The notes under the pieces were generated by a model. It had not been told where the DNA came from and did no database searches. It saw only the letters and a list, made by a program, of their open reading frames with translations. DNA of 44,526 nt. Origin: Coleofasciculus sp. B1-GNL1-01. Its GTDB lineage: Bacteria; Cyanobacteriota; Cyanobacteriia; Cyanobacteriales; Coleofasciculaceae. Below, in pieces: positions 1 to 36,845 of this stretch. Location: the NCBI GenBank assembly GCA_040220235.1, contig JAVJTO010000097.1. One strand, given 5' to 3'. The stretch's first letter is position 1. Every line of letters starts with the position of its first letter. The translations under genes were made by a program, and so were the position numbers.

Positions 1-127
1 GGTTAGTTCATTTAATTCCTAAAGAAAGCCCCTACACCTTTTGGGTGCGATCGCGCTTTGAAATCAAATAGGTTTTCCGGTCTGATTTCCGGTTAATCTA
101 TCTATCGGATATTGAGAGAAAAATCTA

Positions 128-193
128 ATGTAGGGGCGGGTTTAGGGACAAACTCAACCGACCCACTCATAACTTTTCTACAAAACCCGCCCT
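128..193. repeat. REP-like dispersed palindromic element (TGTAGGGGCGGGTTT...AAACCCGCCC family)
   Basis: Inverted arms GGGCGGGTTT/AAACCCGCCC. Related copies lie at about 6911-6974, 36689-36755, 38995-39121 and 44116-44183. Confidence 0.75.
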
Positions 194-266
194 GTCCCCA
201 CCTCTCGCTCAAACGCTCTCTATCATCCCAATTTTATCCTGAAATACCCTACACCTTATCTTTCTG

Positions 267-395
267 CTAGACACGCAGTTAATTATCGCCAAAGAGGTAA
301 AATTAGCTGCGCCTGAATTCTTTGATCCTGTTTTAGAAGAAGTGGATAGAATGCAGGGAATTTTAGTCTCTACTATTCAAAAGTTAAAGTCTTGA
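267..395 (+). pseudogene. C-terminal remnant of a four-helix-bundle (23S rRNA IVP / Avd-like) protein
   Basis: Manual translation gives LDTQLIIAKEVKLAAPEFFDPVLEEVDRMQGILVSTIQKLKS*, matching the (E)LDTQL-containing C-terminal half of this family. The start and N-terminal half are missing. Confidence 0.65.
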
Positions 396-440
396 TTTTC
401 CTTCCCACCCTCTACCTTCTGCCCTCTGCCCCCTGCCTTC

Positions 441-572
441 TCACAAAGTCCTGCCGGAAACGCACACTACCCGAAACCCGTTGAGGAGGTTGTGGAGGAT
501 GCCGGGGATGCCGTCGTTGCGGTACGCCACACGGCAGAGATTCGGGATGATGCCCCAGGAACCGCCGCGCAG
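441..572 (-). other. Putative DGR variable region (VR)
   Basis: GC-rich 3' end of a CLec gene. 20 of 25 codons between GGSW and GFRV end in C, including 15 consecutive NNC codons, which contrasts with the AT-rich codons just upstream. Confidence 0.7.
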
Positions 573-3533
573 AACCTTGTATAATTGATAATTATTATCA
601 TCAGTGTTTTCAAGGGTAAAATCACCTGAACCCCTTAATTTTTCATCTGCATTTACCTTGCTTGTCTCTTGTTGAGAATCTTTTTTATCTAGCCATGCGC
701 TGCCATTGGTTGGCGCACCTTCATAGTTGTCGTGCCAGTCATCTAAACACCATTCCCAGACATTCCCATGCATATCGTACAAACCAAAGGCGTTGGGAGG
801 AAAACTGCCCACAGGTGTGGTTTGTTCTCGGTATAGTCCTTTAGGTTCATCAGCATAGGTAGAACTGGCTCTGTAATTAGCTAATTGATCCGTTAGGGTT
901 TCGCCAAAGTGAAAGGCAGGATAGGTGGTATTTTGGCTTGATTCACGGATAGATGAAGAGTCAGGGAGAATGGCTCGACAAGCATATTCCCATTCGGCTT
1001 CAGAAGGCAGTCTATATTCCCGTCCAGTGAGTTGGGAGAGTCGGGCGCAAAATTCTACTGCATCATACCAGGAGACTGTCTCAACGGGTCTATCCCATCG
1101 GGTGGGAACTGTCTCACTAGACACGTAGTTGGGTAAGGTTTGGGGATCAGGATCATCCTTGAAACGAGCAGGCTCAGGGTCAAGGTCACGGTTTACCTTC
1201 AAATCTGTACGAGACGAGATTATACGCCATTGTGCCTGAGTAATCGGCGTTTTGCTCATAAAGAAGGATGGAACGGTGACTTCGTGTTGGGGGTGTTCCT
1301 CGTCACTTCCTTCTCCTGCTGGCGAACCCATCAGAAACGTGCCGCCAGGGATGGCGACCATATCTAGAGTAATTGTTTGATAGAGAACATACCCCTTTTT
1401 TAACCAATCTCTGACAATCTTAAATTTACCCTTTTTATCAGTATTAAGCTGAGGACAACTGGTGACTAAATGAGTGTACACTCCCTTTCCCAGTCGCCGT
1501 TGCAGCGTCACTTCACTAATATTCAAATCCTGCGCTACCTGACTATCAGAACGTGGCAAATTTCGCGCATTAAACCGAACCAGGAAAGCTTGTCGCTCAT
1601 CTTCTTCAAACAGATTATGAGCATCAGCGACTCGTTTTAGACATTCATCCCAATCATCAGCGAATAGTTTTAGACATTCATCCCATGTTAAAGGAAGTTT
1701 TTCCCTAAAATATCGCGCCGTGCGAGTTTCCCGTCTACTAATCTCACCCTTGCGGTTAACAAAAACTGTTTCAAAGGAGAATACTTCAAGTTCGCTAGTA
1801 TCCAGTGATGGAAACCCAGCAGAAGACGACTGTGACTGTTGTTGGGTGACTCTCGGCGTCGCCTCCACCGATTCACCTTGCCATCCCGCTTCAATTTCCT
1901 CGGCTAAACGCACATAAGCTCCCCCCAATTGTTTCAAAATATGGGTAGTAATCTCAGCAAAATGCTCTGGCTCAAACTCCTTAACCGTTTCCCTTTGCAC
2001 CTGTTTTAAAGCGTCTGGCTGCTTCAACAATCCATAAAACTGCTTGAGATTTTTACCCAGTCGTTGGGCAAAATAGCCAGAAATCACCGTAACAATCTGC
2101 ACAGACTTCGCTGTGGGAGAATCCTTCAGAAACAGACTGCGGATTGTCTCCGACTCATCCCTTGATGCATCCCCAATAAACCGATACTGAATCTCATCCG
2201 GGTTCGTCTCTGGCGTAATTAAACCTTGGGGGTGTAAGAGTCCCCCCAGAAACACTTCCGCAACATGAACCGGTTGAAGTTCCCGCAGTAGCGTGCGTCG
2301 AATTAAGCGCACAATCGGTAAATTCACCACAGGTGCAGCCGCCAGCAAACTCGCCAACTCTCGCGCCATGGGGGAGGAAGATAAGCGGAAGTCATAATAC
2401 CGTTCTGGGAAACCTCTCTCCTGCGGTTGAGAAGGCGTTGAATTCTGCTCAGATGCTAGCGGAAACACAAATCCAGTCGCCCCAACCGTTCCCTTCCCCA
2501 CCACCATTTCACTCCAGGTTTGAGCCAGGTCAGGTTCTAAACTCAATACAGGCACTTTAACGCCCTGTTCCCCCTCAAAATCCTCGCCAAATACAAGTTC
2601 CGTAATTGCCAGATTTCGATTCGCCACAGCCGCTTGACACCGACTATCGAGTTGTACCATTGTCCCCCCACTCAATCCCGTTCGCCACCACATCCGAGTG
2701 GGTAACATCTGGACAATAGCGACAACATTCTGTTTTCCCCAGGTGTCTAGAATTGAGACGGCTTTACCATTGCGCCACTTCTCGCCAACGCAATCACTAA
2801 CCACTAAAATTAACCGATGACCACTGGGATCAATGAGCATTTGGGGACGGTAGAGACGGTGAGACAACGCATATTTACCGATTCCTTTGTTCAGGCGAAT
2901 CTCTCCCTGTTCATCGGTTACCATTCCCCAGGTGCGGACATGACGAAAAATGCCATAGTGCTTACAGAGTTGTTGGAATTCCTGAGTTGTCTGTCGCCAG
3001 AAAATCATCGAGTCGCTTTGATCAATCACCAACTCTAAATCGAATCTCAGTTCTTGAAAGGGCTTGAGAACAGGACTTACAATACCATTTAATTCGGCAG
3101 TCGATTCCACCGTGGCGACTTCATCTAAAATCGTGGTTTCCCTAGAGGAAATACGCTGCATCAAAGGGCTAAATGCCCGTGCCAGTTTTAGGGGGTGAGG
3201 AATAGCCGCGACATCAGGAAGGGCAATCTCTAAGGAATCGTGACGAGAAGTGGTTTTGGCGTAGACTCCTACAGCAGGTTGGTTTCGGGAGGGGATAGTC
3301 GGAAGAGAGGATTCGGGTATTGTGGTGGATGATGGTGTAGAGGATACGGTTGAATCGACAATAGGCGGTTCGGCTGAGGTGGGTTCGTGGGTAGAAGCCG
3401 GAGTTGGAGGTTGAGTTGAAGCGGAATTCCGGCGTTGTGCCGCCAGCCAGAGAATTTCGGCAATTTCTGTCCCGGTGAGGTTTAAATCCTGTTCTAATAG
3501 GGCGATTAATCGGTCAAATTTCTGGGACATCAT
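441..3533 (-). CDS. vWA component of a vWA-MoxR-VMAP ternary system (SAV_2336-like N-terminus) with C-terminal FGE-sulfatase/CLec domain
   Basis: N-terminal [22 protein letters not shown]-like [16 protein letters not shown]-terminal [43 protein letters not shown] and RGGSW...GFRVVC. Lies downstream of moxR. Confidence 0.88.
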
Positions 3534-3881: not shown

Positions 3882-5036
3882 TCACAATTCATCAATCGCT
3901 GACAAACTATTCAACAACAATTCCTGTAACTCCTCCGTAAACGCTTCCGGACTCAAATTATTTCTAATATAAATCGTATTAAGCAATTGATCCGTCGCCC
4001 GATCCTGTTCATCCTTGTCCAAAAACGCTTTAATCAATGACTCAGTTGTCTGTTTCACCCTTTCCCAATTCGCCTCATCCGTTTCCTCTTGGAAATGAGC
4101 CGCAATAATCGTTTTTAAAGCGGCTGTATCCGGATCAGGCATTCTCACCCGCAGACAGCGACGCACAAAAGCCGGGGGAAACTCTCGTTCAGCGTTACTG
4201 GTCATAATAATAATCGGAAAGCTTGAACAATGGACTCTCCCCCGCCGAATCGAGGCTTTAATTCCCGCATCTTCAGTTCGCACTTGTACAGGTTTAGAGT
4301 TACTATTGTCCGTCTGAGTTGGCGACTTATCCGCCCAACGGACTAATTCCGGAATCTCATAGTTTCCTTCTTCAAATAGGTGCAACAGTTCGTTGGGTAA
4401 GTTAATGTCACTTTTATCAATTTCATCAATCAATAACACTCTGGGATACTGAGAGGGTAAAAAAGCGGTTCCCACCGGACCCAAGGTAATATACTGACCA
4501 ATATCCGGCGATTTACCTTTGTTAAGCTGGGAATCTTGGAGTCGTGCGATCGCGTCATACCGATAGAGTCCATCTTGTAAGGTAGAACGGGTGGTAATCA
4601 GCCAAGTTAAGACGGGTCCCAATTTAAGTTCATGGGCAATAGCATAAGCTAAAGAGGTTTTTCCCGAACCCGGATTTCCGGTTACCAAGAGGGGACGCCG
4701 TAAATACAACGCCGCATTCACCGCATCTGCTACATTCACCCTCGGCGGTTTACTTGTCTCATCTTCCCCTTCATTATCAATCGATTCATCCTCTGGTTTA
4801 GGGGAATGCAGCCTAAATTTTCTACCTTTTTCTTTCCCTTGTTTATTTTCCTCAGCATCTGCTAATTGTTGCACCGCTTGCCAACGTTGTTCGATATCTT
4901 TAAGTTCGGCTGAATCGTCAATTTCTCGAAATCGCCGCCAGGGAGGAGGCGGTGGCAAATTGGCAATTTTAAAGCCATGTTCTTGTCCATCGCCATAAAA
5001 AAAATACCAATCATTCGGATGCGTTGTTGATGTCAC
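3882..5036 (-). CDS. MoxR-family AAA+ ATPase of the ternary system
   Basis: LPPPPPWRRF, Walker A GNPGSGKT, YRYDAIARLQD, Walker B LLIDEIDK, SNAEREFPPAFVRRC. Start chosen at GTG 5036 after AGGAGG because the ATG at 5072 lies inside a MITE. Confidence 0.92.
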   Translation of the reverse strand: MTSTTHPNDWYFFYGDGQEHGFKIANLPPPPPWRRFREIDDSAELKDIEQRWQAVQQLADAEENKQGKEKGRKFRLHSPKPEDESIDNEGEDETSKPPRVNVADAVNAALYLRRPLLVTGNPGSGKTSLAYAIAHELKLGPVLTWLITTRSTLQDGLYRYDAIARLQDSQLNKGKSPDIGQYITLGPVGTAFLPSQYPRVLLIDEIDKSDINLPNELLHLFEEGNYEIPELVRWADKSPTQTDNSNSKPVQVRTEDAGIKASIRRGRVHCSSFPIIIMTSNAEREFPPAFVRRCLRVRMPDPDTAALKTIIAAHFQEETDEANWERVKQTTESLIKAFLDKDEQDRATDQLLNTIYIRNNLSPEAFTEELQELLLNSLSAIDEL

Positions 5037-5057
5037 ACTACCCTCCTGTGATCTATT

Positions 5058-5208
5058 TATAGCACTACGCATTAAGGTTAGGACATAAAAGAAAAACTAA
5101 AATCGCTTGACCCTGAGCGAAGTCGAAGGGTCAATCGCTTTTTAGGTAAGCTTTTGTCTTCACTATTGCCCATTCCCCATTCCCTATTCCCTAGCGCGTA
5201 GCGCTATA
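5058..5208. mobile_element. MITE with TATAGC(A/G)CTACGC terminal inverted repeats
   Basis: TATAGCACTACGC at the left end and GCGTAGCGCTATA at the right end. A homologous copy lies at 36966-37095. Confidence 0.8.
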
Positions 5209-6675
5209 GCTTGCCAATTGATTAAACTTGGGTAAATTAACTGGCTTGCGCTCAGTATTATCGCAGAGAACGGATAAATTATACCCCAAAAGTGTCTCTC
5301 GATTCGGTTGTGCCAAGTCTTGCTTACGAATGTCTAGGATTCTGTCCGATAACGTCTCTAAATCAGAGAAAGAGTCGGCTGTAGTTAATGTATTCAAGCG
5401 GTCTATAGCAGACTGACAAAGGTCTTGATTTTTCAACCAGAAACACAACGGAATTCCCTTTGCTAATAAAAGCTCAAAAAATACCTGAGTTTTACGAGGA
5501 GGTAAGTCACAACACAGTTTAACAATGATAAATCGTTCTAGTTCTAATGCCAATTGTTTCTTTTTTAAAGCACTGGATAATAAACTGGACAAGTTTCGAT
5601 CCTGAGCAAAATCACAGATATCCTTGGGGTTGAGTTGTGTCATTTTTTGCCATTTAATCAGACAAGCATTCTGCCAATCGGGTTTTAACAATCGATTTAA
5701 CGAGCGTAACATCACCGAATATTTCTCACAGAGGGCGATATCATCTTTCTTCCAAACTTGAGGAGGCTTGAATTCAAATCGCTTACTGAGGAGTTCGGTG
5801 GGCAGAAATAATTCAATCTTCAAATTGTATGGCTGATTCTGTAAAACTTTTGCGTGTAAGTAGTTGTCTTTAACTTGTTGAATAAACTTATAAATCACAT
5901 CAGGAATCTCTTTCTCGAAATATCCCTCAGTTTTCATGTCCTCTGGATTTAAATCAATGGGTTGATTTTGGGTGTTAGGGAAATCCTCGATAAACTCAGC
6001 TTGGATGTTAAAGGTTTTCTTCTTGGTTCGGGTTTTACCCAGCAGCGGATAAACCAAGATTAATAGATAGCTGTGGAGAATAGAATTGGATGGCTGTTCA
6101 GTTGGAGAATCAAGGGTTGGATAGTTATACTGAATCCACCGTTTTAACTTATCTTTTAGATCAGGCGGGATATTTGGGTAAGTTAACAGATTAATCACAG
6201 AGGATTCGACAAAATCGGTTAAGCTAGGACAGGTAGTAGATAAAGCCATATCTTCTGGATTATTAAGACAATTGAAAAATAGGCGATCGCCTTCAATTAT
6301 CCCTAACAAATTTCCCTCTAACTCTTCCACCGTATGAACGTCAAAAAATTGCTCAACTTTCTTCCCACGAGTCATGTCTTGAAGAATAAAAATGAGGGCT
6401 GACAGTTGCTCATAAATAGTGAAATTCGCTTTAACTATGGGATACTCTTGACCAACTTGTCTAACAAAATCTTGGAAAACCCCTCTGTTCTCTAATTCTT
6501 TAATGGCGTAAATCAGCCTAGTTCGGTAGTCATCACCTGGAAGTTGATTGTAAAAATTCTTGCCAAAAGTCCCTTCATTTTCCAGGAAAATACTTTTCAC
6601 CTGATCTTCACTCAGTACACCTTCAATATCTTGGCGAAGTTTTTGCTTTTGCTGATCAGTTAGACTCATATTCAA
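5191..6675 (-). CDS. VMAP (vWA-MoxR-associated protein) with N-terminal EAD-like domain and VMAP-C-like C-terminus
   Basis: Upstream of moxR. IELFLPTELLS, YSVMLRSLNRL, W..KWQ, GIPLCFW and LSVLCDN motifs are typical of VMAP-C. The N-terminal ~80 aa are paralogous to the C-terminus of the neighbouring CHAT protein. Confidence 0.8.
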   Translation of the reverse strand: MNMSLTDQQKQKLRQDIEGVLSEDQVKSIFLENEGTFGKNFYNQLPGDDYRTRLIYAIKELENRGVFQDFVRQVGQEYPIVKANFTIYEQLSALIFILQDMTRGKKVEQFFDVHTVEELEGNLLGIIEGDRLFFNCLNNPEDMALSTTCPSLTDFVESSVINLLTYPNIPPDLKDKLKRWIQYNYPTLDSPTEQPSNSILHSYLLILVYPLLGKTRTKKKTFNIQAEFIEDFPNTQNQPIDLNPEDMKTEGYFEKEIPDVIYKFIQQVKDNYLHAKVLQNQPYNLKIELFLPTELLSKRFEFKPPQVWKKDDIALCEKYSVMLRSLNRLLKPDWQNACLIKWQKMTQLNPKDICDFAQDRNLSSLLSSALKKKQLALELERFIIVKLCCDLPPRKTQVFFELLLAKGIPLCFWLKNQDLCQSAIDRLNTLTTADSFSDLETLSDRILDIRKQDLAQPNRETLLGYNLSVLCDNTERKPVNLPKFNQLASYSATR

Positions 6676-7275: not shown

Positions 7276-8688
7276 TTAACCGAGAAAATCCCGTGAAAAA
7301 TCCTGATACTCTTCTCTAACAACAGCGATAAATGCTGACAGATAACCTCGATTCTCCAACTCTCGAATTAAGCGAATCACTCGCGTTCGATAATCACCGC
7401 CAGGAATCTGATTATAAAAATTCCTGCCAAACGTCCCTTCATTTTCCAGGAAAATACTTTTAACCTGATCTTCACTCAACACCGTTTCAATTTCATCCCG
7501 CAACCTCTTCCTCAGTTCATCCGTCAACTTAACTAAAACCACACTCTTTTGTTCACCCTCTCCTAACCCCTTGTTTTCCCACAAAAACCCAACCGCCGCA
7601 TTCATATAAATCACCGGAATCGCAAAATCTAGCTGTTCATAACCATTATCCAGAGCAATATTAAACCGCGCCTGCTGTACAGCAGCATTCACAGACTTCC
7701 CCTTGACAATTTCCCCATAAAAATCCTTGACAAAACTACTAACCGTCTGATTAGACACTTGATACTGCATCGCGATAACCACAGGAATCCCTTGCAGCAT
7801 CAGACGAGACGCCACGCTACTAAACCCATCCGTCTCTGATGATTTTCCCGTTTCACAAGCTTGTAAAATAACAATTTTAGGACGATGCTGAGTAAATAAT
7901 CGACTAAAAAAATCAGCCGTTTTCCAATCCGGTTCCCCCGAATCTCGCACCAATGCTACTTGCCCAACATCCTTGCCATGTTCTGAAATTAATTGACCAT
8001 GACCAATAAAGTGAAAGATATCCGGTTTGCCATTACTTAATTGTTCAGCAACTTTTCGCGATGTCGCTGGATTAATCGCGGGTAAAAGTTGAATCTTGTC
8101 CGGTTGATTAGCAAGCCCAGTTAAATAACCTTGAACCTCCTGATAGTCAACCTGACTCAACTGAGGATCGGCAGTCGGTCTAGCCACAACTAAAGCGATT
8201 TTTAGAGATTCATTTGCCCCTACCTGAATCACTGGTTTATCTTCTCTTATGACGTTATACCGACTCCGAACCAAACTCAAATTCGGATCAGTCGCCAATA
8301 GAATTTCTCCCAGTTGATACCGTTGGGGAAAACGCAACAACTCCCAGGGATACGCCATTAATTCCGGCATTGCCGTTTCATTAATCTCTAGACTAACCTG
8401 TAATTGTTTCTCCTTTTGTAGAACAATCTCTTGATAGATTTGCCAAAAATTATCCCGGAGTTGAGTATCAAATAACGCCTCAAATAACGCCTCACCAACT
8501 CGTTGAATTGACTCCCCCGTTAACCGAGACGAATCAGTAAGACAATCTTGAACACGCTGATTTATCCTATCCAGCCGCAACCTTCCCGTCGCTTCATTCA
8601 GAACTTGAAACTCTGGACTCCATAATTTCACCCTAACCGACGTTTCATTCGGGACACAAATCTGATAAATAGACTCAGCTTTATCCAT
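7276..8688 (-). CDS. CHAT (caspase-like) protease with C-terminal EAD-like domain
   Basis: YPWELL; HFIGHG and LQACET catalytic His/Cys; VVIAMQY; FAIPVIY. ATG at 8688 overlaps the end of the upstream gene. Confidence 0.87.
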   Translation of the reverse strand: MDKAESIYQICVPNETSVRVKLWSPEFQVLNEATGRLRLDRINQRVQDCLTDSSRLTGESIQRVGEALFEALFDTQLRDNFWQIYQEIVLQKEKQLQVSLEINETAMPELMAYPWELLRFPQRYQLGEILLATDPNLSLVRSRYNVIREDKPVIQVGANESLKIALVVARPTADPQLSQVDYQEVQGYLTGLANQPDKIQLLPAINPATSRKVAEQLSNGKPDIFHFIGHGQLISEHGKDVGQVALVRDSGEPDWKTADFFSRLFTQHRPKIVILQACETGKSSETDGFSSVASRLMLQGIPVVIAMQYQVSNQTVSSFVKDFYGEIVKGKSVNAAVQQARFNIALDNGYEQLDFAIPVIYMNAAVGFLWENKGLGEGEQKSVVLVKLTDELRKRLRDEIETVLSEDQVKSIFLENEGTFGRNFYNQIPGGDYRTRVIRLIRELENRGYLSAFIAVVREEYQDFSRDFLG

Positions 8689-9610
8689 GAGGCAGTATAA
8701 TCTTGTTCTCACCAATCCAGGCTTCTTTTTGACCCACCGCAAACTGTTTAGCCGCCCTCGCCTTACTGCCAAATACATCTTTTAAATGACCAGGAAGGGC
8801 TTTGATTACATGACTTAATTCCCCATTCAGCCAATCCATCTCCGGTTCAATCCAAACCTGCCCAGTTAACTCAATCGAGTCCCAACCTTTAGGAACCTTA
8901 AAAATAATCCCAAACTTTACCGTCGCCTGATCCTGAAGTTTCGGCTTCTCAATCCGCCAGTAACATTCCGAATTATCATCCCCTTGGGCAATAATATCAA
9001 ACTTCCCCAGTTGATAAGTCAACCCATCCAAAACCGTAAATAATTTCAGATTATCTTTACTCTCCACATTCGCTTTCAGCCGATTATAATCGGGAAGGCG
9101 TTCAACCTTAGCAAGTTCAGCCGCATTCACCCCAGCGCTGACATCCAGATTAGCATCTAAACCCAGATTCATCTCCACGCCAATATTGAGAATCGGCTGC
9201 CATTTTGCCCCAGGAATAATCCGATGCACAATCGGCGCTTGATTTCCTTGAGAACCAAAGCTAAGATGACATTCCAACCCAGAAATCTCCACACTAGGTT
9301 GGGGGCGAGGGTCAACGCTAATAACCATTGAATAGAAGTCAAACTGATGCATTAATTGCCGAACTTCGTAATCTAATTCAATCCCTTGGGCTGCAAACCC
9401 CTGTGCAGTCAGTGGGATTAAGCGACTGCGCGGATCACCAAAGGTTACACGGGTTTCTTTAAGGCGTTGAATCGCGGTTTTGCCTCGCGCCCCATCTTGC
9501 GCCTCTCCTCCGGCTAAGTTCGCCTCTTTTGAACTTACCTCCTCAAGTAAATCATTGAATAGTTGTTCCGCTTCCTCAAGATTCGGTGGTGTTAGGTTTC
9601 GATTCATCAT
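8681..9610 (-). CDS. Hypothetical protein, first gene of the ternary-system operon
   Basis: 309-aa ORF overlapping the CHAT start by 8 nt. No family recognised. Confidence 0.75.
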   Translation of the reverse strand: MMNRNLTPPNLEEAEQLFNDLLEEVSSKEANLAGGEAQDGARGKTAIQRLKETRVTFGDPRSRLIPLTAQGFAAQGIELDYEVRQLMHQFDFYSMVISVDPRPQPSVEISGLECHLSFGSQGNQAPIVHRIIPGAKWQPILNIGVEMNLGLDANLDVSAGVNAAELAKVERLPDYNRLKANVESKDNLKLFTVLDGLTYQLGKFDIIAQGDDNSECYWRIEKPKLQDQATVKFGIIFKVPKGWDSIELTGQVWIEPEMDWLNGELSHVIKALPGHLKDVFGSKARAAKQFAVGQKEAWIGENKIILPHG

Positions 9611-12865: not shown

Positions 12866-13506
12866 ATTGATATAAGCGACAGTCCGGGTCTATCTGTAAA
12901 GAAATATAACATAAATAGCCCAAGTTAAACTCTCTTCAGATAAAGAGCCATGATCTGGATGATAGCGAATCCTGACGGATCAAATTCGTTGGCGGGTGAT
13001 ACTTGTGAGACTGTCAGGGTGTGGCTTGAAAAGGGGGATTGATACCCAATCCGCTTTTGAAAGCCCCTTCAGAACGAACTCAATTAACGATTACTATTCA
13101 TTACTAAATATAAAGTTACATCACTGCTTGACTAATTTGAGAATTATTAATCTTTTTCAATTAGACTTGACGAGCGGGTTGAATCTGATTAAAGTCAGTG
13201 ATCATGCCATCAATGTGTATTGTGAGTATTGTGAGTTAGGTTGCCTAGCCAAGGGAATTGCCCCATGCCAGACTGTAGTGAGTGGTGTAACACCCAACGG
13301 GAAGACCTCGTGAGGGCACCATCCTTGCGTCCAGAGAACCCAATCTATTTTTGTGTCATGTCAGTAGGGTGGGATTATTAGCCTAAAAAGAGTGAGTGCG
13401 ATCGCAGCTTGGTAGATGTGTTAGATCCAATATATAGATCTGGAATGCTCAAGCATTATTAAACGTCCCTTTGAAACCCAACCTCTGCTGGGTTAATGAA
13501 TCAGCC

Positions 13507-16500
13507 ATGAACAGAGTACATCTTTTAACCGCCGCTGTTACCGGATTTTGGCTTTGGGTTTTCAGCCTTGGTACCTCCTCTGAAGTCCTAGTTCTGGCGC
13601 AACCGATTACCCCAGCAGCCGATGGTACAGGGACAATAGTCACACCAGATGGAAACCGCATCGACATTTCCGGTGGGAGTCTGTCTGCTGATGGCAAAAA
13701 CCTCTTCCACAGTTTCCAGCAGTTTGGCTTAAATCCCGAAGAAGTCGCCAACTTTTTAGCCAATCCAGATTTAAACAATATCCTCAGTCGCGTCGTGGGT
13801 GGTGACGCTTCTGTGATTAACGGGTTAATTCAGGTAACAGGCGGCAATCCTAACTTATATATAATGAATCCGGCTGGGATTATTTTGGGTCCTTCTTCTC
13901 AACTCAATGTCCCTGGTGACTTTGCCGTCACCACCGCCGACGCTATTGGTTTTGGCGATAACCTTTGGTTTAATGCCATTGGCGAGAATGATTATCAGAA
14001 CTTAGTCGGGACACCCAACCAATTTGCTTTTGATGTACCGGAAGCTGGAAGTATCGTTAATGCAGGGGATTTAGCGGTATCAGAGGGAAAAAATCTAACC
14101 CTACTGGCTGGGAATGTCGTTAACACCGGGAATCTAACCGCACCTGGGGGAAGCATTACCGTTGCAGCCGTTCCCGGTTCCAATTTAGTCAAAATTTCTC
14201 GACCTGGGGGGTTATTGTCTCTGGAAGTTGAACCACCTAGAACTCCAGAGGGGGACTTGTTGCCAGTTCAGCCTGGGGATTTAGCTGAATTATTAACCGG
14301 TTCAGGGGAAGAGGTTGATACAGGAGTCGAGGTTAACGAATCTGGCGATGTACAACTAGCAGATACTGGAGTAACCTTACCACAAGAGACAGGAGTTGCT
14401 ATTGTTTCGGGTGAAATTAATGTTTCTAACGTCGGTACACCCTCGCCCTCATCCTCAACCGGAGGTGAAATTAATGTCATTGGCAATAAAGTTGGTCTAA
14501 TTGCCGCCAATCTAGACGCATCAGGAAGTCATGGTGGGGGTACTGTACGAATTGGCGGCGGTGAAAAAGGACTTGAAGCGATTCCCAATGCTGATGTCAC
14601 TTTGATTAGTGAAGACACAAGGATTAACGCCGATGCTTTAGATGAAGGCAAAGGGGGGCGAATCATTGCTTGGTCAGATCAGACCACTCGTACCTATGGG
14701 GATATTAGCGCTCGGGGTGGGGCAAATTGGGGTAATGGCGGTTTTGTCGAAACCAGTAGTGCTGGCTTTTTAGATGTTCCTTTTGCTCCCGATATCACAG
14801 CACCTGCTGGGGATGGGGGAACCTGGTTAATTGACCCTTACAATATCACGATTAGTGATGGGACTAATACCATTCCCCTTGGTGGCACCGCACCTGATTT
14901 GAATTTTACGGCGGCGGCTAGTGACTCAGTAGTCAATATTGACACCCTCTTGGCTGGCTTAAGTAGCGGTAATGTCACTATATCTACAGGGACAGGAGGT
15001 GACCAAGAGGGAAATATCACTCTAGCTACAGATTTAAATTTTAACGGCAGGGGAAAGAGAACCTTAGTCTTGAATGCGGCAAACAATATCATCATCGATG
15101 GGAAGATATTTGATAGCGCCCCCGATGCGGCTAATTCTGATTTCCTTTCCCCGATTTTGAATGCAGGTGGCACTGTTGAATTGAATCAGAATGTTTCAAC
15201 CGGAATCGGTAACATCGAAATTAATGCTACGGGTGGGATTACGCAAGCTCCTGGCACAACGTTGAATATCGGAGGAGCCACCACGTTAAACGCCGGTGCA
15301 AGTGATATCAACTTGGATAATCCGGGCAATAACTTCTTGTTTGTATCAGTTGACAACGCTAATAATGTCTTTCTCTCTGATGCAGATAATATTGTGCTAA
15401 ACACTTCTACTATTACGGGCAACCTTGATGTAACTGCCCAAGGTAACATAAGCCAAGGAGCAGGGAGTGGACCGCTTCGTGTTGACGGTACAAGTAGCTT
15501 AACGACTAACCAAGCCAATAGCACGATTACCCTGAATAATTTAAATGCAACAGAGGCAATTAGTCTCAACACCAACGGCACGGGTGGTAACGCCACAATT
15601 ACTAATGCTCAAGGAGTAAACCTCAACACCTCAAACGTGGGTGGAAATCTGAATGTCACGGCGACGGCAGGTAACATTAATCAAAGTGGAACCGTCACCG
15701 TTGGCGGTACAAGTAGCTTGAGGACTAACCAAGCCAATAGCACGATTACCCTGAATAGTTTAAATGCAACAGAGGCAATTAGTCTCAACACCAACGGCAC
15801 GGGTGGTAACGCCAGTATCACCAGTAATCAACAGGTGAACCTGGGAACTTCTGATGTTGGCGGCACTCTCAATGTCACCGCTACTGATGTGAATATCAAC
15901 GATACAGTTGCTGCTGGGAATGCCACATTTGTGCCAACTGACTCCACCTCAACGATTGGTATTGGTGATAGTGCTTCTGGCAATTTTAACCTGACTTCTG
16001 CTGATTTAACCAACATAGAATCAAATGGTACAGTCACAATTGGTAGTAATAGTGTTACCGGAGATGTGACTATTAACGCTGTTGACCTTAACAATGAAAC
16101 GTTTAACCTGACAGTGCAAGGTGCTAATCCTGTTTTTGATGGAAATGTTAACCTACCTAATAATCTAAACGTTACGGCGACAACAGGAAACATTACCCAA
16201 AACACTGGCATAAAAGTTGATGGTACAGTGACTCTGCAAACAGGAAATAGCAATGATATTATCCTTAATAATGCCAGCAACCAATTTAATGAAGTCGCTA
16301 TCACCACAGCCAGAAATGTAGAGTTAAATAATGCCGATGATATTCAAATAAAAGCAGCTACAATTTTCGGCAACTTGAACCTAACTAGCAATGCTGCAAT
16401 TAATCAGTCGCCGTCAAGTGGTTCTTTAAGAGTTGATGGTACAGCTACCCTGACAGCAGGAAATAATCAGGATATTAATCTCAACAATACCAACAACGAC

Positions 16501-19500
16501 TTCAATGAAGTAGTTATCAACAACGCACGCGATGTGACGTTGAATGACACCAATGACATTAGTTTCAGTAATTCTAACTCTACGCTACAAAACTTGACTC
16601 TGAGTAGCAGCAATGGAAATATTGTTCTGGGAACTACCATTGTTAATGGAGATCTAAATGTAAATAGTCAAGGAGGTGGGATTAGTCAAAACTCCTCCAC
16701 TGATACACTAACCGTTAACGGCACAGCGACTCTGGCAACAGGAAATAGCAACAATATCACCCTTGACAATACCAATAACGACTTGAGTAATGTTGTTGTT
16801 AATCGGGGTAATAATGTAACTCTCAACGACATCAATACCCTTAATCTAAATTCGGCTTCAGTTTCTGGTGGACTGACAGTTACAGCAGCAAATCTATCGA
16901 CGACTGGAGTAATCAATGCTGGCTCTGTTAACTTAACTGGCAATAACGGGATTACTCTAAATGATACGATTGAAACGTCAGATGTAGATAACAACAACGT
17001 TACCCTAACAGGAACCGTGACTTTAGGGACAAACGCGACTATTAATACGGATAATGCCAATAATGACGGCAATATTACTATCAATCAATCGATTAATGGT
17101 GCCCGTAATCTGACATTGAATGCTGGAAGTGGTGCGATCACTGTAGGTCAAGCAATTGGTGGCACTACAGCCCTAAGCAACTTAAACTTAAATGCAAGGG
17201 ATATTACCTTATCTAATATTGGGGGTATAAGCGAAGGTGTTACCGACACAGCAACGCTCAATGCGACAGAAGCTATTAATTTTACAGGAACAACTTATAA
17301 CGCTCAGAACCAGAACTACACCGCAGGAACAGCATTTAATCTCAACAATACAACTAACTTTACCTCTAACGATGGTGCGATCGCGTTTAACACCGGTACG
17401 ATTCAGGGGACTAATCCAGCTACTGACTTAACTCTGGATGCAGGTACAGGTAGTGTTACAGTAGATGCGATCGGCAATGGCAACGACATCAACAATCTCG
17501 CTATCCAGGGTAATAGCGGAATCACACTCAATGGCGACATCACCACATCTGATGCCGATACTACGATAAACCTCAACAGTCCAGTCACTGTAGGTGAAGA
17601 TATTGTCATTACCAATAAAGAGGGTGAGATTAATTTCAACAGCCCTGTGGATGGGAAAACCGCAAACAGTCAATCGTTAACGGTAGAGGCAGAGAATAGC
17701 ACAGTAGTGTTTAACGGTGCTGTAGGTAATAGCACACCCTTAAAGGATTTGACGGTTAATAATGGGGCATCTGTAACCTTTAATAATCGGGTTACAGTAA
17801 CAAAAGATATTAACCTAACCGCAGATGAAATTGACTTTAATGGCGGATTAAACTCAGTTAGTACCCCGAATCAGGGAACCATTTCCCTGAAACCAACAAC
17901 CGATAATGCGTCGATTGATATAGGCTCACCCGCTAGTGGACAAGGGCTTTTAGATATCAGTGATACAGACTTGGCAGCGATAGCCGACGGCTTTAGCCAG
18001 ATCACAATTGGTAAGGATACTGGTAGTGGCACAATAGTTATGGACTCTGGGGGTGTCAGTTTCCGAGATCCGGTGACGATTCAATCTCCAGTTCAGGGCG
18101 GCATAATTAATGTGGATGGCAATCTAACCGGAACCGATGAGGCTTCCATCACAATTGATGGTGCAGATGTCTATCTAGGAAACCCAAATAATCCTCAAGT
18201 CGAAATCACCACAGATGGACAGAATATTATTATCGGTCAAAATGTACATCTACATTCTGATCTGGTGGAAGTTAAAACGGATGCGGGAGCCGGTGACATT
18301 ACCTTTACGGGTGATGTTGACGGAGAAACGGATGAGAAGCAAAGTCTTACCGTTGCACCGGGTACAGGTAATGTTTCTTTTGAAGGGGAAATCGGTCAGG
18401 ATGTTCCATTGAAACAGTTACGGATTGGTGACAATACCACAATCAATGCGGATATTGTCGGCACTTCGACGACTATTTTTAACAGTTTATTTGTTAATGC
18501 TAAACAGAGCCGAGTCGCGGGTATTATCAAAACCCGAGGGGGTCCGATTGAATTTACCGGTGATGTAATTCTGGTTACGGATACCACATTCGATACATTT
18601 CCAGAAGAATCACCAGGAGCTACAGGAGGTAATGTCATCTTCGGTGCTACTGTATCTAGCTCCACGGAAAATATACCCGATCAATCCTCTACGTCACCGT
18701 TTAACTTGAACATCAACACTGGCTCTGGAACAGTTACGTTTGGTGGTGCTGTCGGCGCTCAAAACTTTGACAATGGATTGCAAACAACAGATTTGGGTTC
18801 GCTGACGATTGAAAGTGCTGGAGAGGTGAAAGCCGTTTTAGACGGTGACGCCAGTTTACCGTTTGCAATTACCACTGTTGCACCAGAAACACTTCCAGAA
18901 GATGCTCCAAAAGGCATTAGTATCTTGGCGGATAGTATAGACTTTAGCAATGCTAACCTTGAGGCAGAAATAGTCAACCTAGAGGCAACCGAGAACATTA
19001 GTACCGCCAGTGTCACCGCCACAGAGGAAAATATTACCCTCAATAGCCAAACAGGTTCCATTGATACAAGTCTTGGCACACTTACCGCCACTCAGGGTGA
19101 TGTCAACCTCACCGCTAACCAGGGTGATATGACGACGGCGGATATTGAAGTAACCGAAGGAGAAGTGAATCTAACCGCCACCCAGGGAAGTGTGACGACA
19201 GCGAATGTAGAAGCGCCAACAGTTAACATTCAAGCGAATAATGATATCAACACGGCTAGTGTCACCGCCACAGAGGAAAATATTACCCTCAATAGCCAAA
19301 CAGGTTCCATTGATACAAGTCTTGGCACACTTACCGCCACTCAGGGTGATGTCAACCTCACCGCTAACCAGGGTGATATGACGACAGGGGATATTGAAGT
19401 AACCGAAGGGGTGGTGGATTTAACCGCTTTAGATGGCAGCGTGACGACAGCGAATGTGGAAGCGCCAACGGTGAACATTCTGGCAAATAATGATATCAAC

Positions 19501-21726
19501 ACGGCTAGTGTCACCGCTACGGAGGAAGACATCACACTCAATAGCCAAACAGGTTCAATTGATACGAGTCAAGGAACACTCACCGCCACTCAGGGTGATG
19601 TCAACCTCACCGTTAACTTGGGTAACATTACCACAGGAAACATAGAAGGAGAAAGCGTCAACCTCCAGGCAAATGACGGAATTACTACAGCCAATGTCTC
19701 TTCAACCAATGGCGCAATTACCTTTACCAGTCAATCAGGAGCTATACAAAGTGGTGATTTAACCGCCAAAGGAGAGACAGAAGAGGGAGAGACAGAAGAA
19801 AACACAGTAACTGTTACAACCTCAAATAATATTACAACGGGTAACATTGATACATCTTCAGAAACAGGTAAAGGGAAAGCGATCGCGCTCACCAGCGAAA
19901 CCGGAGATATTACAACACAGAATTTAAACTCATCGGGTCCATTGGGTGGAGGTTCTATCGATGCTTCCACCCTGGGTCAAATTACACTTGCAGAGGTTAA
20001 CTCCAGTTCTACTGGGGGTTTCGCGGGTTTAATCACGCTCAATAACGGTCAACCTGAATTCCTCAGAGACGCTCCGGGTATTGATCTGACGTTTATCAAT
20101 GCTCAAGGTTTGCCGAGAAATCCAGCAGCCATCTCATTGAGTCCAACAGAAACAGAAGGAACTGAAATTACTATTAACATCACCACGGATGGTTACTTTC
20201 GAGCAACAGGTACATTCGTTTCTCAAACTGGCTTACAAGCTAGTCTTGCCACAGGTGGTGATCCAATCGTGATTCGACATGGTGGTGGTACTGCCTTTGA
20301 TCCCTTTGAGGTTGGAAATGCGACCCAAAATGGCACAATAGGTGCCATTACAAACGGCAATGGATTTACCGGAACAATCTTACCCGTTCAATCTTTCACT
20401 CGTCCTGTTCGACAAGAAAACATTGAAATTATTTCTCGGATACCCTCTCAAAACAATCTGCCATTAACAAGTCTCTATCCTAACCTTTCAATGACTAGTC
20501 AAGTAGCTGATGCTGACCTGGAAATTTCTACGCTTGACAGCGTTCTCACTGATGCCTTTTCGGGATATTTAGGACCAAAACCCAGTGTTAACAATCCGGC
20601 TGATGCACCTAAAATACTGGCGCAAATTGAGAAACAAACGGGAGTAAAACCAGCATTTATGTATACCACATTTGTTGGCGGACGCCTGGAACTGAGAATG
20701 GTTTCGGCTGAGGATAAAAAGATTGTTAGTCTCCCTGATGTAACCCAAGAAACGATTGTGCAAACGGCGACAAAATTACGCCGTGAAATCACTAATCCCA
20801 TTAAACGGAGAACGACCAGTTATTTAGAACCCGCTCAACAACTGTATGAATGGTTAATCGCTCCCTTAGAAGCTGAGTTAGAGGCGCAAGGCATTCAGAA
20901 TCTGGTGTTCATTATGGATAGTGGTTTGCGTTCCTTACCTGTGGCAGCTCTCCATGATGGTCAAAACTTTTTAGTGGAAAAATACAGTGTGGGGTTAATG
21001 CCTAGTCTCAGTATTACCGACACCAGCTATAACAATATTCAAAATGCTCCCGTTTTAGCGATGGGAGTGGCTGAATCCAGTAGTCTGGCGAAAGAGCTGA
21101 ATCTGAGTCCTTTACCTGCTGTACCCCTAGAGCTTCAAACCATTGAAAGTATTCGCGATGGAGAAACTTTCCTGAATGAAAAAGTTACCCTAGAAACGCT
21201 CAAATCCCAAAGCCAAGATGCCACAATTGTACATTTAGCTACCCACGGTGAATTCAAACCGGGTCCTTTAGAAAATTCCTATATTCTCTTGTGGAATGAT
21301 TTACTGCGTTTAAACCAACTGCGAGAATTAGGCTGGAATGAGCGTCGCACCCCAATTGAATTGTTAATCCTGTCGGCTTGTCGTACAGCCGTGGGTGATG
21401 AAAACGCGGAGTTAGGGTTTGCTGGATTAGCGGTGCAAGCAGGTGCTAAGTCAGCGCTGTCAAGTTTGTGGTATGTCAGTGATGAAGGCACTTCTGGATT
21501 GATGACCGAGTTTTATCGGAAGTTACAAACCGCTCCAATTAAATCTGAAGCTTTACGACAAGCACAGTTAGCGATGCTGAATGGTGAGGTGCGCTTAGAA
21601 GGAGGACAATTACGGGGAAGTGGACAACCTGTTCCTTTACCGTCAACATTACAAGGTCAAGGGGATCAGTCTCTCTCACATCCCTATTATTGGGCAGCAT
21701 TTACTATGATTGGAAGTCCTTGGTAA
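13507..21726 (+). CDS. Giant filamentous-haemagglutinin-like protein (TPS N-terminal domain, beta-helical repeats) with C-terminal CHAT protease domain
   Basis: Signal-like N-terminus; NLFHSFQQF, NPAGI and GGFVETS; long N/T/G-rich repeats; CHAT motifs LATHGEF, LSACRT and HPYYWAAF. Start taken at ATG 13507. Confidence 0.92.
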   Translation: MNRVHLLTAAVTGFWLWVFSLGTSSEVLVLAQPITPAADGTGTIVTPDGNRIDISGGSLSADGKNLFHSFQQFGLNPEEVANFLANPDLNNILSRVVGGDASVINGLIQVTGGNPNLYIMNPAGIILGPSSQLNVPGDFAVTTADAIGFGDNLWFNAIGENDYQNLVGTPNQFAFDVPEAGSIVNAGDLAVSEGKNLTLLAGNVVNTGNLTAPGGSITVAAVPGSNLVKISRPGGLLSLEVEPPRTPEGDLLPVQPGDLAELLTGSGEEVDTGVEVNESGDVQLADTGVTLPQETGVAIVSGEINVSNVGTPSPSSSTGGEINVIGNKVGLIAANLDASGSHGGGTVRIGGGEKGLEAIPNADVTLISEDTRINADALDEGKGGRIIAWSDQTTRTYGDISARGGANWGNGGFVETSSAGFLDVPFAPDITAPAGDGGTWLIDPYNITISDGTNTIPLGGTAPDLNFTAAASDSVVNIDTLLAGLSSGNVTISTGTGGDQEGNITLATDLNFNGRGKRTLVLNAANNIIIDGKIFDSAPDAANSDFLSPILNAGGTVELNQNVSTGIGNIEINATGGITQAPGTTLNIGGATTLNAGASDINLDNPGNNFLFVSVDNANNVFLSDADNIVLNTSTITGNLDVTAQGNISQGAGSGPLRVDGTSSLTTNQANSTITLNNLNATEAISLNTNGTGGNATITNAQGVNLNTSNVGGNLNVTATAGNINQSGTVTVGGTSSLRTNQANSTITLNSLNATEAISLNTNGTGGNASITSNQQVNLGTSDVGGTLNVTATDVNINDTVAAGNATFVPTDSTSTIGIGDSASGNFNLTSADLTNIESNGTVTIGSNSVTGDVTINAVDLNNETFNLTVQGANPVFDGNVNLPNNLNVTATTGNITQNTGIKVDGTVTLQTGNSNDIILNNASNQFNEVAITTARNVELNNADDIQIKAATIFGNLNLTSNAAINQSPSSGSLRVDGTATLTAGNNQDINLNNTNNDFNEVVINNARDVTLNDTNDISFSNSNSTLQNLTLSSSNGNIVLGTTIVNGDLNVNSQGGGISQNSSTDTLTVNGTATLATGNSNNITLDNTNNDLSNVVVNRGNNVTLNDINTLNLNSASVSGGLTVTAANLSTTGVINAGSVNLTGNNGITLNDTIETSDVDNNNVTLTGTVTLGTNATINTDNANNDGNITINQSINGARNLTLNAGSGAITVGQAIGGTTALSNLNLNARDITLSNIGGISEGVTDTATLNATEAINFTGTTYNAQNQNYTAGTAFNLNNTTNFTSNDGAIAFNTGTIQGTNPATDLTLDAGTGSVTVDAIGNGNDINNLAIQGNSGITLNGDITTSDADTTINLNSPVTVGEDIVITNKEGEINFNSPVDGKTANSQSLTVEAENSTVVFNGAVGNSTPLKDLTVNNGASVTFNNRVTVTKDINLTADEIDFNGGLNSVSTPNQGTISLKPTTDNASIDIGSPASGQGLLDISDTDLAAIADGFSQITIGKDTGSGTIVMDSGGVSFRDPVTIQSPVQGGIINVDGNLTGTDEASITIDGADVYLGNPNNPQVEITTDGQNIIIGQNVHLHSDLVEVKTDAGAGDITFTGDVDGETDEKQSLTVAPGTGNVSFEGEIGQDVPLKQLRIGDNTTINADIVGTSTTIFNSLFVNAKQSRVAGIIKTRGGPIEFTGDVILVTDTTFDTFPEESPGATGGNVIFGATVSSSTENIPDQSSTSPFNLNINTGSGTVTFGGAVGAQNFDNGLQTTDLGSLTIESAGEVKAVLDGDASLPFAITTVAPETLPEDAPKGISILADSIDFSNANLEAEIVNLEATENISTASVTATEENITLNSQTGSIDTSLGTLTATQGDVNLTANQGDMTTADIEVTEGEVNLTATQGSVTTANVEAPTVNIQANNDINTASVTATEENITLNSQTGSIDTSLGTLTATQGDVNLTANQGDMTTGDIEVTEGVVDLTALDGSVTTANVEAPTVNILANNDINTASVTATEEDITLNSQTGSIDTSQGTLTATQGDVNLTVNLGNITTGNIEGESVNLQANDGITTANVSSTNGAITFTSQSGAIQSGDLTAKGETEEGETEENTVTVTTSNNITTGNIDTSSETGKGKAIALTSETGDITTQNLNSSGPLGGGSIDASTLGQITLAEVNSSSTGGFAGLITLNNGQPEFLRDAPGIDLTFINAQGLPRNPAAISLSPTETEGTEITINITTDGYFRATGTFVSQTGLQASLATGGDPIVIRHGGGTAFDPFEVGNATQNGTIGAITNGNGFTGTILPVQSFTRPVRQENIEIISRIPSQNNLPLTSLYPNLSMTSQVADADLEISTLDSVLTDAFSGYLGPKPSVNNPADAPKILAQIEKQTGVKPAFMYTTFVGGRLELRMVSAEDKKIVSLPDVTQETIVQTATKLRREITNPIKRRTTSYLEPAQQLYEWLIAPLEAELEAQGIQNLVFIMDSGLRSLPVAALHDGQNFLVEKYSVGLMPSLSITDTSYNNIQNAPVLAMGVAESSSLAKELNLSPLPAVPLELQTIESIRDGETFLNEKVTLETLKSQSQDATIVHLATHGEFKPGPLENSYILLWNDLLRLNQLRELGWNERRTPIELLILSACRTAVGDENAELGFAGLAVQAGAKSALSSLWYVSDEGTSGLMTEFYRKLQTAPIKSEALRQAQLAMLNGEVRLEGGQLRGSGQPVPLPSTLQGQGDQSLSHPYYWAAFTMIGSPW
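15481..15815 (+). repeat. Intragenic near-identical repeat, 219-bp period
   Basis: GTSSL.TNQANSTITLN.LNATEAISLNTNGTGGNA is encoded twice (about 15481-15596 and 15700-15815). Confidence 0.85.
19003..19620 (+). repeat. Intragenic tandem repeat, 249-bp (83-aa) period, ~2.5 copies
   Basis: TASVTATEE.ITLNSQTGSIDTS.GTLTATQGDVNLT starts at 19003, 19252 and 19501. Confidence 0.9.
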
Positions 21727-26849: not shown

Positions 26850-28094
26850 GTGAGTCCAAAAGAAGCATCACAGCGCATAGGGGTTAGCGTGGATACCCTC
26901 AGGCGCTGGGAGGCGACGGGAAAGATTAAGGCAATGAGGACGCCAACAGGACACAGAAGGTACGACATGACGTCATTAGTTACGGGTAGCGAGGAAGTCA
27001 AAGAGCCTGATAGGGTGAATCTGATAGGAGAGGGTACGCTTCAACAGATAGCTAAGGGTCTATGTGAGTATGAACACCAAATCCCCAAAAGCCTCTCAGC
27101 CTATCCGGCTGTCTTGCAATTAGGGGTAAACAAGCTGGCACTTGCTTGTTTAATAGCCCGAGTGCGTCAACCGATACAAGGAGTTCCTGATTTTGTGTCC
27201 AGATGGGCGCAGCGCCCCTTAAAAGATTGGGATATAGAAATTGATTGTCCTGAAGAATGGCTCGATAAGCGACTGATAGAAGACCAAAAGCCGAGTGGGT
27301 TTTGTATTGAAACCGCAGGGGAATACTTCGATGAATGGGGTAATTTCCAAAAGAAAATAATTAATGAGGTAATGACTAAAGCCGCACAAAACCCGGAACT
27401 CTATACGAGGTTTAGGAAGTATCTTATAGAAAACCCTGTCGTAACAAGGGGTCAACTTTATGTTGACAGCGCTGTAGATTTTAAGCTCGTGCAAGACCTT
27501 CTGATACATAGCTATGAAAAAGCTCCAGAATCTTATAAGTTAAGTGAGAATTTTTACGGCTGCGGTCATTGTGGCGGTTTAATGTATGTAACAAAAGATA
27601 ATAATTTAAAATGTGAGAACAAACATTGTGCTAAAGAAAAAAAGAATCCTGTCCCTTTAGCCGAGCATCAGTCTGATGAAATCTTTTGGCTGAAGAAGGA
27701 TTTACGATATTTTATTCATCGTCCAGGGAAAGCCGAACTACGACTCGAAGGAAGATTGAAACAGTTAAACCGATTAGAAGTTAAGCTATATCCAGAACTC
27801 GACCAATATGACTTACATTTAGTTTTTTCAGATGGAACAGTCTGGGCGGTTGATGTCAAGTTTTGGGAATCAGCATATAACTTAGCCAAAAAAGTAAATC
27901 AGCCTATTCGCCAACTCAAGCATCAGCCTTACCATAAATCCTTTTTTGTCTTTCCTGATGAACTGAAAAGTTATGGTCAAGAGTACATCCAAGAATTTCG
28001 AGGTTACTGTCCCGTCTCGATCAAAAAATCTCAGGTAATGTTTGAAAGTGCCTTTGTCAAAAAAGTTATCAAAAAGCTAGGAAGTGAGAAATGA
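26850..28094 (+). CDS. pPIWI_RE-associated restriction-endonuclease-fold protein with N-terminal MerR/IS607-like HTH
   Basis: N-terminal GVSVDTLRRWE..GKI..RTPTGHRRY; YTRFRKYLIENPV; Zn ribbon CGHC...CENKHC; YPELDQYDL...WAVDVK (PD-(D/E)XK-like). ATGA overlap with the helicase gene. Confidence 0.85.
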   Translation: MSPKEASQRIGVSVDTLRRWEATGKIKAMRTPTGHRRYDMTSLVTGSEEVKEPDRVNLIGEGTLQQIAKGLCEYEHQIPKSLSAYPAVLQLGVNKLALACLIARVRQPIQGVPDFVSRWAQRPLKDWDIEIDCPEEWLDKRLIEDQKPSGFCIETAGEYFDEWGNFQKKIINEVMTKAAQNPELYTRFRKYLIENPVVTRGQLYVDSAVDFKLVQDLLIHSYEKAPESYKLSENFYGCGHCGGLMYVTKDNNLKCENKHCAKEKKNPVPLAEHQSDEIFWLKKDLRYFIHRPGKAELRLEGRLKQLNRLEVKLYPELDQYDLHLVFSDGTVWAVDVKFWESAYNLAKKVNQPIRQLKHQPYHKSFFVFPDELKSYGQEYIQEFRGYCPVSIKKSQVMFESAFVKKVIKKLGSEK

Positions 28095-31294: not shown

Positions 31295-31314
31295 TTACTT
31301 ATAGGTTATTACTC

Positions 31315-36537: not shown

Positions 36538-36845
36538 AGCTTCATTGAGGATTGGGGATTGGGAATTTGTGATGGAGGATTGGTGATTGCTCATATTCGC
36601 GAAGCGCCAAGCACGCTCCGTCATTTTTCGTAGCACAGGGAACAAGGACTTTAAATTCATAATTCAAAACTCGTAGCTTAAAACTCGGTTAGGGCGGGTT
36701 TTGAATAAACGTTATCATTTATAGCTTGTGTGAAAGTTCATAAACCCGCCCCTACACACTCAAAACTCAACATGAATCGCGGGAATCCCCGTCCTCCACG
36801 CGCCATCAGGGGGAGGGATAGCGGGGCGACGTAGGTACGGAGTCG

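Follow-up and report, generated by a model that had tools for sequence, protein, structure and literature searches.

A diversity-generating retroelement repeat on a Coleofasciculus VMAP sensor gene, probably orphaned from its template

The VMAP-type operon and its vWA-CLec gene

The window analysed here, the whole stretch of 44,526 nucleotides, is contig C97 of the 8.66-Mb, 172-contig draft genome of Coleofasciculus sp. B1-GNL1-01 (labelled G000 below). Four of its genes lie on the minus strand in the order CHAT, VMAP, MoxR and vWA-CLec, with the MoxR gene directly upstream of the vWA gene and the VMAP gene upstream of MoxR. The vWA-CLec gene (441..3533, minus strand) encodes a protein of 1030 residues, the vWA component of the system. 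Its SAV_2336-type N-terminal (vWA-related) domain occupies residues 21–494 (2052..3473; NF041121, E 5e-124, above cut-off) and contains, at residues 171–175, a DxSxS motif, which we take to be a MIDAS motif. The FGE-sulfatase or CLec-fold domain extends over residues 724–1030 (444..1364), the Pfam match itself (PF03781, E 6e-54) covering residues 724–953; no Pfam vWA model matched the protein. Sequence relatives of the CLec domain in the PDB include PvdO (5hha, E 5e-30) and TvpA (2y3c, E 7e-12), the latter being a variable protein of a diversity-generating retroelement (DGR).

The MoxR-like AAA+ ATPase (396 residues; 3882..5072, minus strand; AAA_5, E 1e-9) is 46–49% identical to ATPases of other VMAP loci. 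The VMAP protein (5191..6675, minus strand), composed of VMAP-M12 and VMAP-C (PF20028, E 4.5e-17; PF20015, E 7e-9), begins with an adaptor-like segment of 76 residues, which recurs at the C-terminus of the CHAT caspase-like protease (7276..8778, minus strand; PF12770, E 6e-25) with 66% identity over 76 residues (VMAP 3–78 versus CHAT 416–491). The segment matched no Pfam EAD model; its placement at the N-terminus of one protein and the C-terminus of the other is, judged from the alignment, the pattern of a shared adaptor domain. The protease retains its His and Cys motifs (HFIGHG and QACETG). With a MoxR ATPase, a VMAP-C protein, a vWA protein carrying a C-terminal effector or sensor domain and a linked peptidase, the operon is, by predicted domain composition, a VMAP ternary system; the original prediction of such a system with MoxR and a caspase-like protease agrees with the Pfam matches of the three neighbours. 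By family inference, the operon may serve ligand sensing, relay and protease recruitment: binding of an invader ligand by the CLec tip would be signalled through the vWA domain and MoxR to VMAP, and the CHAT protease would be recruited by way of the adaptor segment common to VMAP and CHAT.

In the parts of Kaur, Burroughs, Iyer and Aravind 2020 (PMC7159879) drawn on here, FGS domains are the main effectors of cyanobacterial VMAP systems, and approximately 80% of the cyanobacterial and gammaproteobacterial systems are linked to a DGR; the template can adjoin the locus or lie at another site in the genome. The present operon resembles the systems described there in having a vWA protein with a C-terminal FGS/CLec domain, MoxR, VMAP, a caspase-type peptidase and the shared adaptor segment; it differs from them in that no template and no DGR reverse transcriptase (RT) were found in its genome, and in that a gene of its own encodes the CHAT peptidase, with the adaptor segment as the link.

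The vWA-CLec gene ends 440 bases from the contig end, which lies in a dispersed repeat of about 250 bp (1..253; seven BLAST matches in the genome). Between the two, at 254..440, is a flank of purine-rich heptamer repeats and a plus-strand ORF fragment of 42 codons (267–395), which was matched by no tool, finds only itself in the genome and presumably resembles the end of a four-helix-bundle protein. At the other side of the operon, a 309-residue gene (8681–9610, minus strand) without Pfam or NCBIfam match overlaps with its end the longest CHAT reading frame and is 94% conserved in the related genome G006. Farther along, the window contains a plus-strand gene for a 2751-residue protein with a TPS domain, DUF5649 repeats and CHAT (13471–21726), a complete three-gene pPIWI_RE island (26850–34203, plus strand; REase, helicase-type Z domain and the Argonaute-like pPIWI_RE) and, after the island, an RNase_H_2 gene (34915–36660).

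A variable repeat at the 3' end of the gene

Codon-for-codon alignment to DGR templates of the family delimits a repeat-homologous stretch at 447..572 (minus strand), with limits that match the tract swapped at a kinase-CLec locus described below. Within it lie a hypervariable core of codons 994–1018 (480..554), which includes 15 consecutive NNC codons (codons 1004–1018; 480..524), and a constant, class-defining 3' end (447..479) with 0–3 differences among alleles in 12 codons, presumed IMH-like from its position. The NNC run is the sole one of four or more codons in the gene. Third positions in the first 981 codons comprise 312 T, 248 A, 235 G and 186 C (57% AT3), and in the last 46 codons 26 C, 11 G, 7 T and 2 A. 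The original prediction had singled out this run in an AT3-rich gene, within a quoted list of 27 codons, and the counts bear it out. At a C3 of 0.19 the chance of such a run is of the order of 1e-8, a rough figure that assumes independence; in the whole genome, seven of the 4616 stop-to-stop frames of at least 200 residues contain an NNC run of at least 15, the other six being three short tandem repeats and three low-complexity stretches. The run by itself is therefore suggestive, and it is the comparative evidence that decides.

The comparison covered nine genomes of the genus (G000–G008, 96–100% complete), 52 of the family including these nine, and 401 of the order. The constant end of the window's repeat class occurs once each in six of the nine genus genomes and in none of the 43 other family genomes. 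Scans with the repeat-class pattern returned six of the 52 family genomes, four of the 401 order genomes and four genome_contigs records, all of them coding tails; the four records (L049–L052) are Coleofasciculus MAGs, the genome_contigs pattern having been exact and spanning the last repeat bases, so that it could miss a template. The orthologous operon is carried by G002, G006 and G007 (in pieces in the last), and was not found among the 40 candidates scored per genome in G001, G003, G005 and G008. Only the CLec part of the orthologue, behind a transposase, is present in G004, and in G008 a kinase-CLec paralogue bears the window's repeat class. In G004 (G004:C22; L066:7594-10365) the transposase cuts the target from its N-terminal part, and the remaining piece has no MoxR neighbourhood and keeps a downstream hairpin.

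Compared with the window's gene, the four orthologues differ over 23–25 repeat codons at 10–12 first, 10–12 second and 1–6 third codon positions, and over 245–274 codons of the CLec core at 22–31, 11–24 and 28–50 positions, respectively; for all five other alleles the repeat values are about 11, 11 and 1–6. Between the repeat start and the second proline, the alignment of six alleles has 69 columns free of gaps, and none of the 36 invariant ones among them is an A. Of the 15 columns with at least three states, 13 include A and 13 fall on codon position 1 or 2. Such A-free invariant columns, combined with variation at positions 1 and 2, are, on the evidence of the aligned alleles, the trace of adenine-specific copying from an AAC-rich template. 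The codon count of the two NNC blocks varies as well, from 4+6 to 5+9, among eight distinct tails.

A further comparison is provided by contig 17 of metagenome run X17, the flanks of which are 97–98% identical to the window on both sides of a different core. It shows 3 differences in 145 bases and one 7-base gap against 330–481, and 5 in 165 bases and one 3-base gap against 555–722; between these, exactly 73 core bases are swapped for 70 others, the joint running from 481 to 555 and thus replacing precisely the hypervariable core. In contig 24 of run X5, 12 of 12 core differences among those listed fall on codon positions 1 and 2 (23 differences in all).

The tail is thus, on the indirect evidence of the six alleles, a true DGR variable repeat on a vWA-CLec sensor: it is 3'-terminal in a CLec gene, its changes are confined to codon positions 1 and 2, and its variable sites trace to adenines. 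Of the original prediction of a remote DGR target, the DGR variable repeat stands, without RT or template beside it, while the diversification in trans within this genome is not supported. A DGR repeat can evidently be recognised from alleles alone when its template is gone.

Template, reverse transcriptase and cassette remnants

No template was revealed by BLASTN or by an ungapped scan, blind to adenines, that covered the 172 contigs on both strands (self score 140, next best -57), and a scan for the repeat shape returned only four coding tails. A template-like pattern was found in none of the nine genus genomes, and the tail pattern in the 52 family and 401 order genomes occurs in coding copies only. 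No JGI metagenome contained the tail pattern; one contained the 5' pattern, in an unrelated DGR (L096), the template of which is interrupted by an IS256-like transposase gene. In IMG/VR nothing was retrieved by the repeat pattern, and RT relatives did not exceed 38% identity.

Five templates of the family (G015, G017, G038, G052, G060) were tried and set aside as non-cognate, only 16–18 of 41–49 mismatches falling at template adenines; the share is low because these templates belong to other classes with differing constant ends. A retroelement-free origin of the variability, through positive selection of the ordinary kind and gene conversion between CLec paralogues, would be in line with the lack of a cognate template anywhere searched, with the low adenine share of the five templates and with the mosaic nature of CLec genes; it is nevertheless very improbable, since selection on the protein can neither hold third positions at C while positions 1 and 2 saturate nor keep each of the 36 invariant columns free of A, and DGR remnants are present in the genome.

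No DGR RT was detected in the assembly. Its eight RVT_1 matches are seven group II intron-like proteins, with best identities of 22–33% to DGR RTs, and one Drt2-like protein; none of the eight exceeds 33% to a reference set of four DGR RTs, which are 76–77% alike among themselves. The Drt2-like protein is a stand-alone RT of 667 residues (G000:C51:165433-167433; L007), whose best specific match, Drt2, remains below cut-off. A close DGR RT was found in none of the nine genus genomes and in three of the 52 family genomes, one of the three being the source of the query. G001 and G005 gave RT matches of 28%, which were discounted as distant RTs, and weak Avd-model matches (L010–L013, L055–L061) did not match DGR Avd proteins in follow-up searches. 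No intact Avd is encoded in this genome, in which only an avd stub of 45 codons is left. The original observation that neither RT nor template lies near the locus can accordingly be extended, as regards DGR RTs and templates, through the adenine-blind, repeat-shape and RVT_1 searches, to the whole draft assembly.

Several RT genes are present in the genome, as are two further CLec genes with repeats, and it could be imagined that another of its RTs still mutagenises the tail with a paralogous tail as template. This is extremely unlikely: the RTs are group II intron-like or Drt2-like, an intact Avd is missing, the paralogous tails belong to another class, code for protein and have already been mutated, and the lack of any adenine-rich template largely refutes it.

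The avd stub belongs to a second VMAP-type operon (C44:71700-79900; L009, L104), which consists of trypsin, VMAP-like, MoxR and vWA genes and a CLec target, together with a decayed DGR cassette. The CLec target is followed by a hairpin, the 45-codon stub (C44:78740-78874), a reverse-strand toxin-antitoxin-like pair and an RT scrap of about 30 codons near C44:79750-79840. The same avd break and insert are found at G001:C52 and G003:C51, which retain part of the 3' spacer of the template; this spacer remnant was not found in the present genome. The repeats beside the shared break in the three genomes differ at 8–12 first and 7–12 second codon positions. The opposite mode of decay is seen in two cassettes of G052 (contigs C9 and C89; L075, L079), in which the template is kept but half of avd and the greater part of the RT are gone.

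The C44 target and a kinase-CLec gene on contig C100 carry another repeat class, with a constant end unlike that of the window. The kinase-CLec gene, a target of the remote type adjoining leuS, is present both here (G000:C100:14529-16358) and in G008 (G008:C103; L069:6533-7840), with the C44 class in the former and the window's class in the latter, the swap extending over about 130 bases between flanks that are near 90% identical.

Full-length Avd proteins form a cluster of nine sequences, two of them from a Coleofasciculus MAG, that are 83–88% identical to the stubs, and an intact RT of 352 residues (P0248) is 82% identical to the RT scrap and lies on a contig equal in size to that of one Avd member. 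It follows that the machinery survives in some strains of the Coleofasciculus type. The lack of template and RT, which speaks against the predicted diversification in trans, thus holds for the assembly and the eight other genus genomes, but not for the genus as a whole, from which a full-length Avd and an intact RT protein to match are on record.

The 3' flank of the target gene has changed as well. A pyrimidine tract and a GC hairpin of 5–6 bp follow the stop codon in G004, in G008, at C44 and C100 and in one intact cassette; the hairpin is degenerate in G002 and G006, and in the window no GC hairpin is found in the 113 bases after the repeat, the flank at 254..440 standing in its place. This hairpin-less flank of about 190 bases is common to the window, G007 and contig 17 of X17. 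The requirement for a hairpin is known from DGRs other than cyanobacterial ones. In G004 and G006, where the DNA downstream of the orthologue is assembled, no avd or RT gene is found there.

Origin and movement of the tail alleles

Taken together, these results make it fairly probable that the tail is the work of a DGR whose class no longer has a template in this genome, and that it is now static. The lineage would once have held an avd-RT-template cassette of the window's repeat class; an AAC-rich template RNA would have been reverse-transcribed with errors at adenines, and the cDNA would have replaced the tail. The writing was probably done from a distance, because no allele adjoins cassette parts and because the class reached two different genes. 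The present genome may have inherited, or obtained by recombination, a single allele, which it could no longer rewrite.

Ongoing mutagenesis in trans in this genome is not supported: a template in the same genome, an intact RT with Avd, and a downstream hairpin are all absent from the draft assembly. The main rival to an orphaned tail is nevertheless an active remote target, the cognate avd-RT-template cassette of which would have escaped assembly, sit on a contig outside the bin or belong to a subpopulation, and would still rewrite the tail in trans. With a draft assembly and a gene so close to a contig end, such a cassette could be unassembled; contig 17 of X17 has a different core between near-identical flanks; the genus or its habitats have yielded intact Avd and RT proteins; and the repeat class on the kinase-CLec gene of G008 means that a second locus was reached. 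A precedent is given in the part of Dore et al. 2024 (PMC10907252) cited here, where a VMAP locus lacks RT and template in the reference and population variants have both intact. All the same, this alternative is rather unlikely, given the absence of a DGR RT from nine genomes of such completeness, the assembled downstream DNA of G004 and G006, a tail pattern that is only coding in family and order genomes and missing from JGI metagenomes and IMG/VR, the loss of the hairpin, and identical alleles across diverged flanks.

The last point is seen most clearly in P0013 and P0016, which have an identical tail of 36 residues and differ in 27 of 269 upstream CLec residues. One common tail is shared by P0036, P0123, P0125 and P0126, and two pairs of repeats show no difference between G001 and G004. 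In the public runs X1, X5 and X17, single contigs at a depth of 68–235 span the core, which speaks against massive variation within those samples, though not against rare variants, which contigs tend to drop. These runs offered contigs of related populations; no run contained half of the window's words, and runs with less than 0.3 of them are uninformative on habitat. Uncovered bins over the core in X1 and X17 were rejected as a sign of absence, being due to divergence.

A simple history, in which the tail was diversified and then froze once, does not account for the three different cores of the three copies on the hairpin-less flank (G000, G007 and contig 17 of X17), nor for the different repeats beside one avd break. 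It can be proposed tentatively, as a possibility with less than even prospects, that hypermutation operates at the level of the population: a minority of Coleofasciculus strains would carry an intact cassette, finished alleles (or brief visits of the cassette) would get to strains without the machinery through homologous recombination spanning about 130 bases, and the mat would form a library of sensor tips although most genomes in it could not mutate them. Such sharing fits the different cores on one flank, the different repeats beside one avd break in three genomes, the identical tail shared by CLec bodies that are 10% apart and the swap of repeat class at the kinase-CLec locus. Titles and abstract starts of the literature searched contained no mention of a transfer of DGR alleles to machinery-less strains.

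DGR-diversified VMAP sensors, remote and template-less ones included, are already on record in the parts of Kaur 2020 (PMC7159879) and Dore 2024 (PMC10907252) relevant here. The latter proposes the vWA-CLec target as a sensor, a role called untested in its abstract. In its account of Thiohalocapsa PB-PSB1, as far as used here, the repeats of DGR 7 have no matching template in the reference and intact variants in the population, DGR 1 has a static target, and DGR 4 and 5 are diversified in trans. The window shares with DGR 7, DGR 1 and the clade 5E cyanobacterial DGRs of that study a vWA-CLec sensor in a VMAP system; unlike Thiohalocapsa PB-PSB1 as portrayed there, with intact DGRs in the same genome, neither this nor the eight other genus genomes has any, and the lesion of the C44-type cassette is common to three genomes. 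Remote targets of cyanobacterial DGRs were described by Vallota-Eastman et al. 2020 (PMC7517822) and Wu et al. 2018 (PMC5758913); in the passages concerned, remote variable proteins resemble the present one in their dispersed CLec genes, 3'-terminal variable repeats and kinase-CLec and vWA architectures, and are defined by a template match in the same genome, which fails here. The name Coleofasciculus is absent from the main text of PMC7517822, and a full-text literature search combining it with 'diversity-generating retroelement' returned nothing; the supplements of the Kaur, Dore and Vallota-Eastman papers may list the genus or the locus.

The locus is therefore one more DGR-marked VMAP sensor, for which 'remote target' is to be corrected to 'orphan' in this genome. 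The residual interest lies in alleles that differ among strains with the same inactivating lesions. Should alleles indeed pass from strain to strain, much of the diversified repertoire of sensors in mat cyanobacteria would escape DGR surveys that demand RT and template in one genome, and anticipatory immunity would have the population, not the cell line, as its unit.

Two minor observations concern CLec genes elsewhere in the genus. In G003, a genome without RT, at least six CLec genes, differing in their repeat tails, stand in tandem behind a vWA-CLec gene (G003:C51; L064:3881-14018). In the present genome, a CLec fragment at G000:C44:82929-83330 has had its whole variable repeat deleted between two short identical stretches, and the constant end and flank remain.
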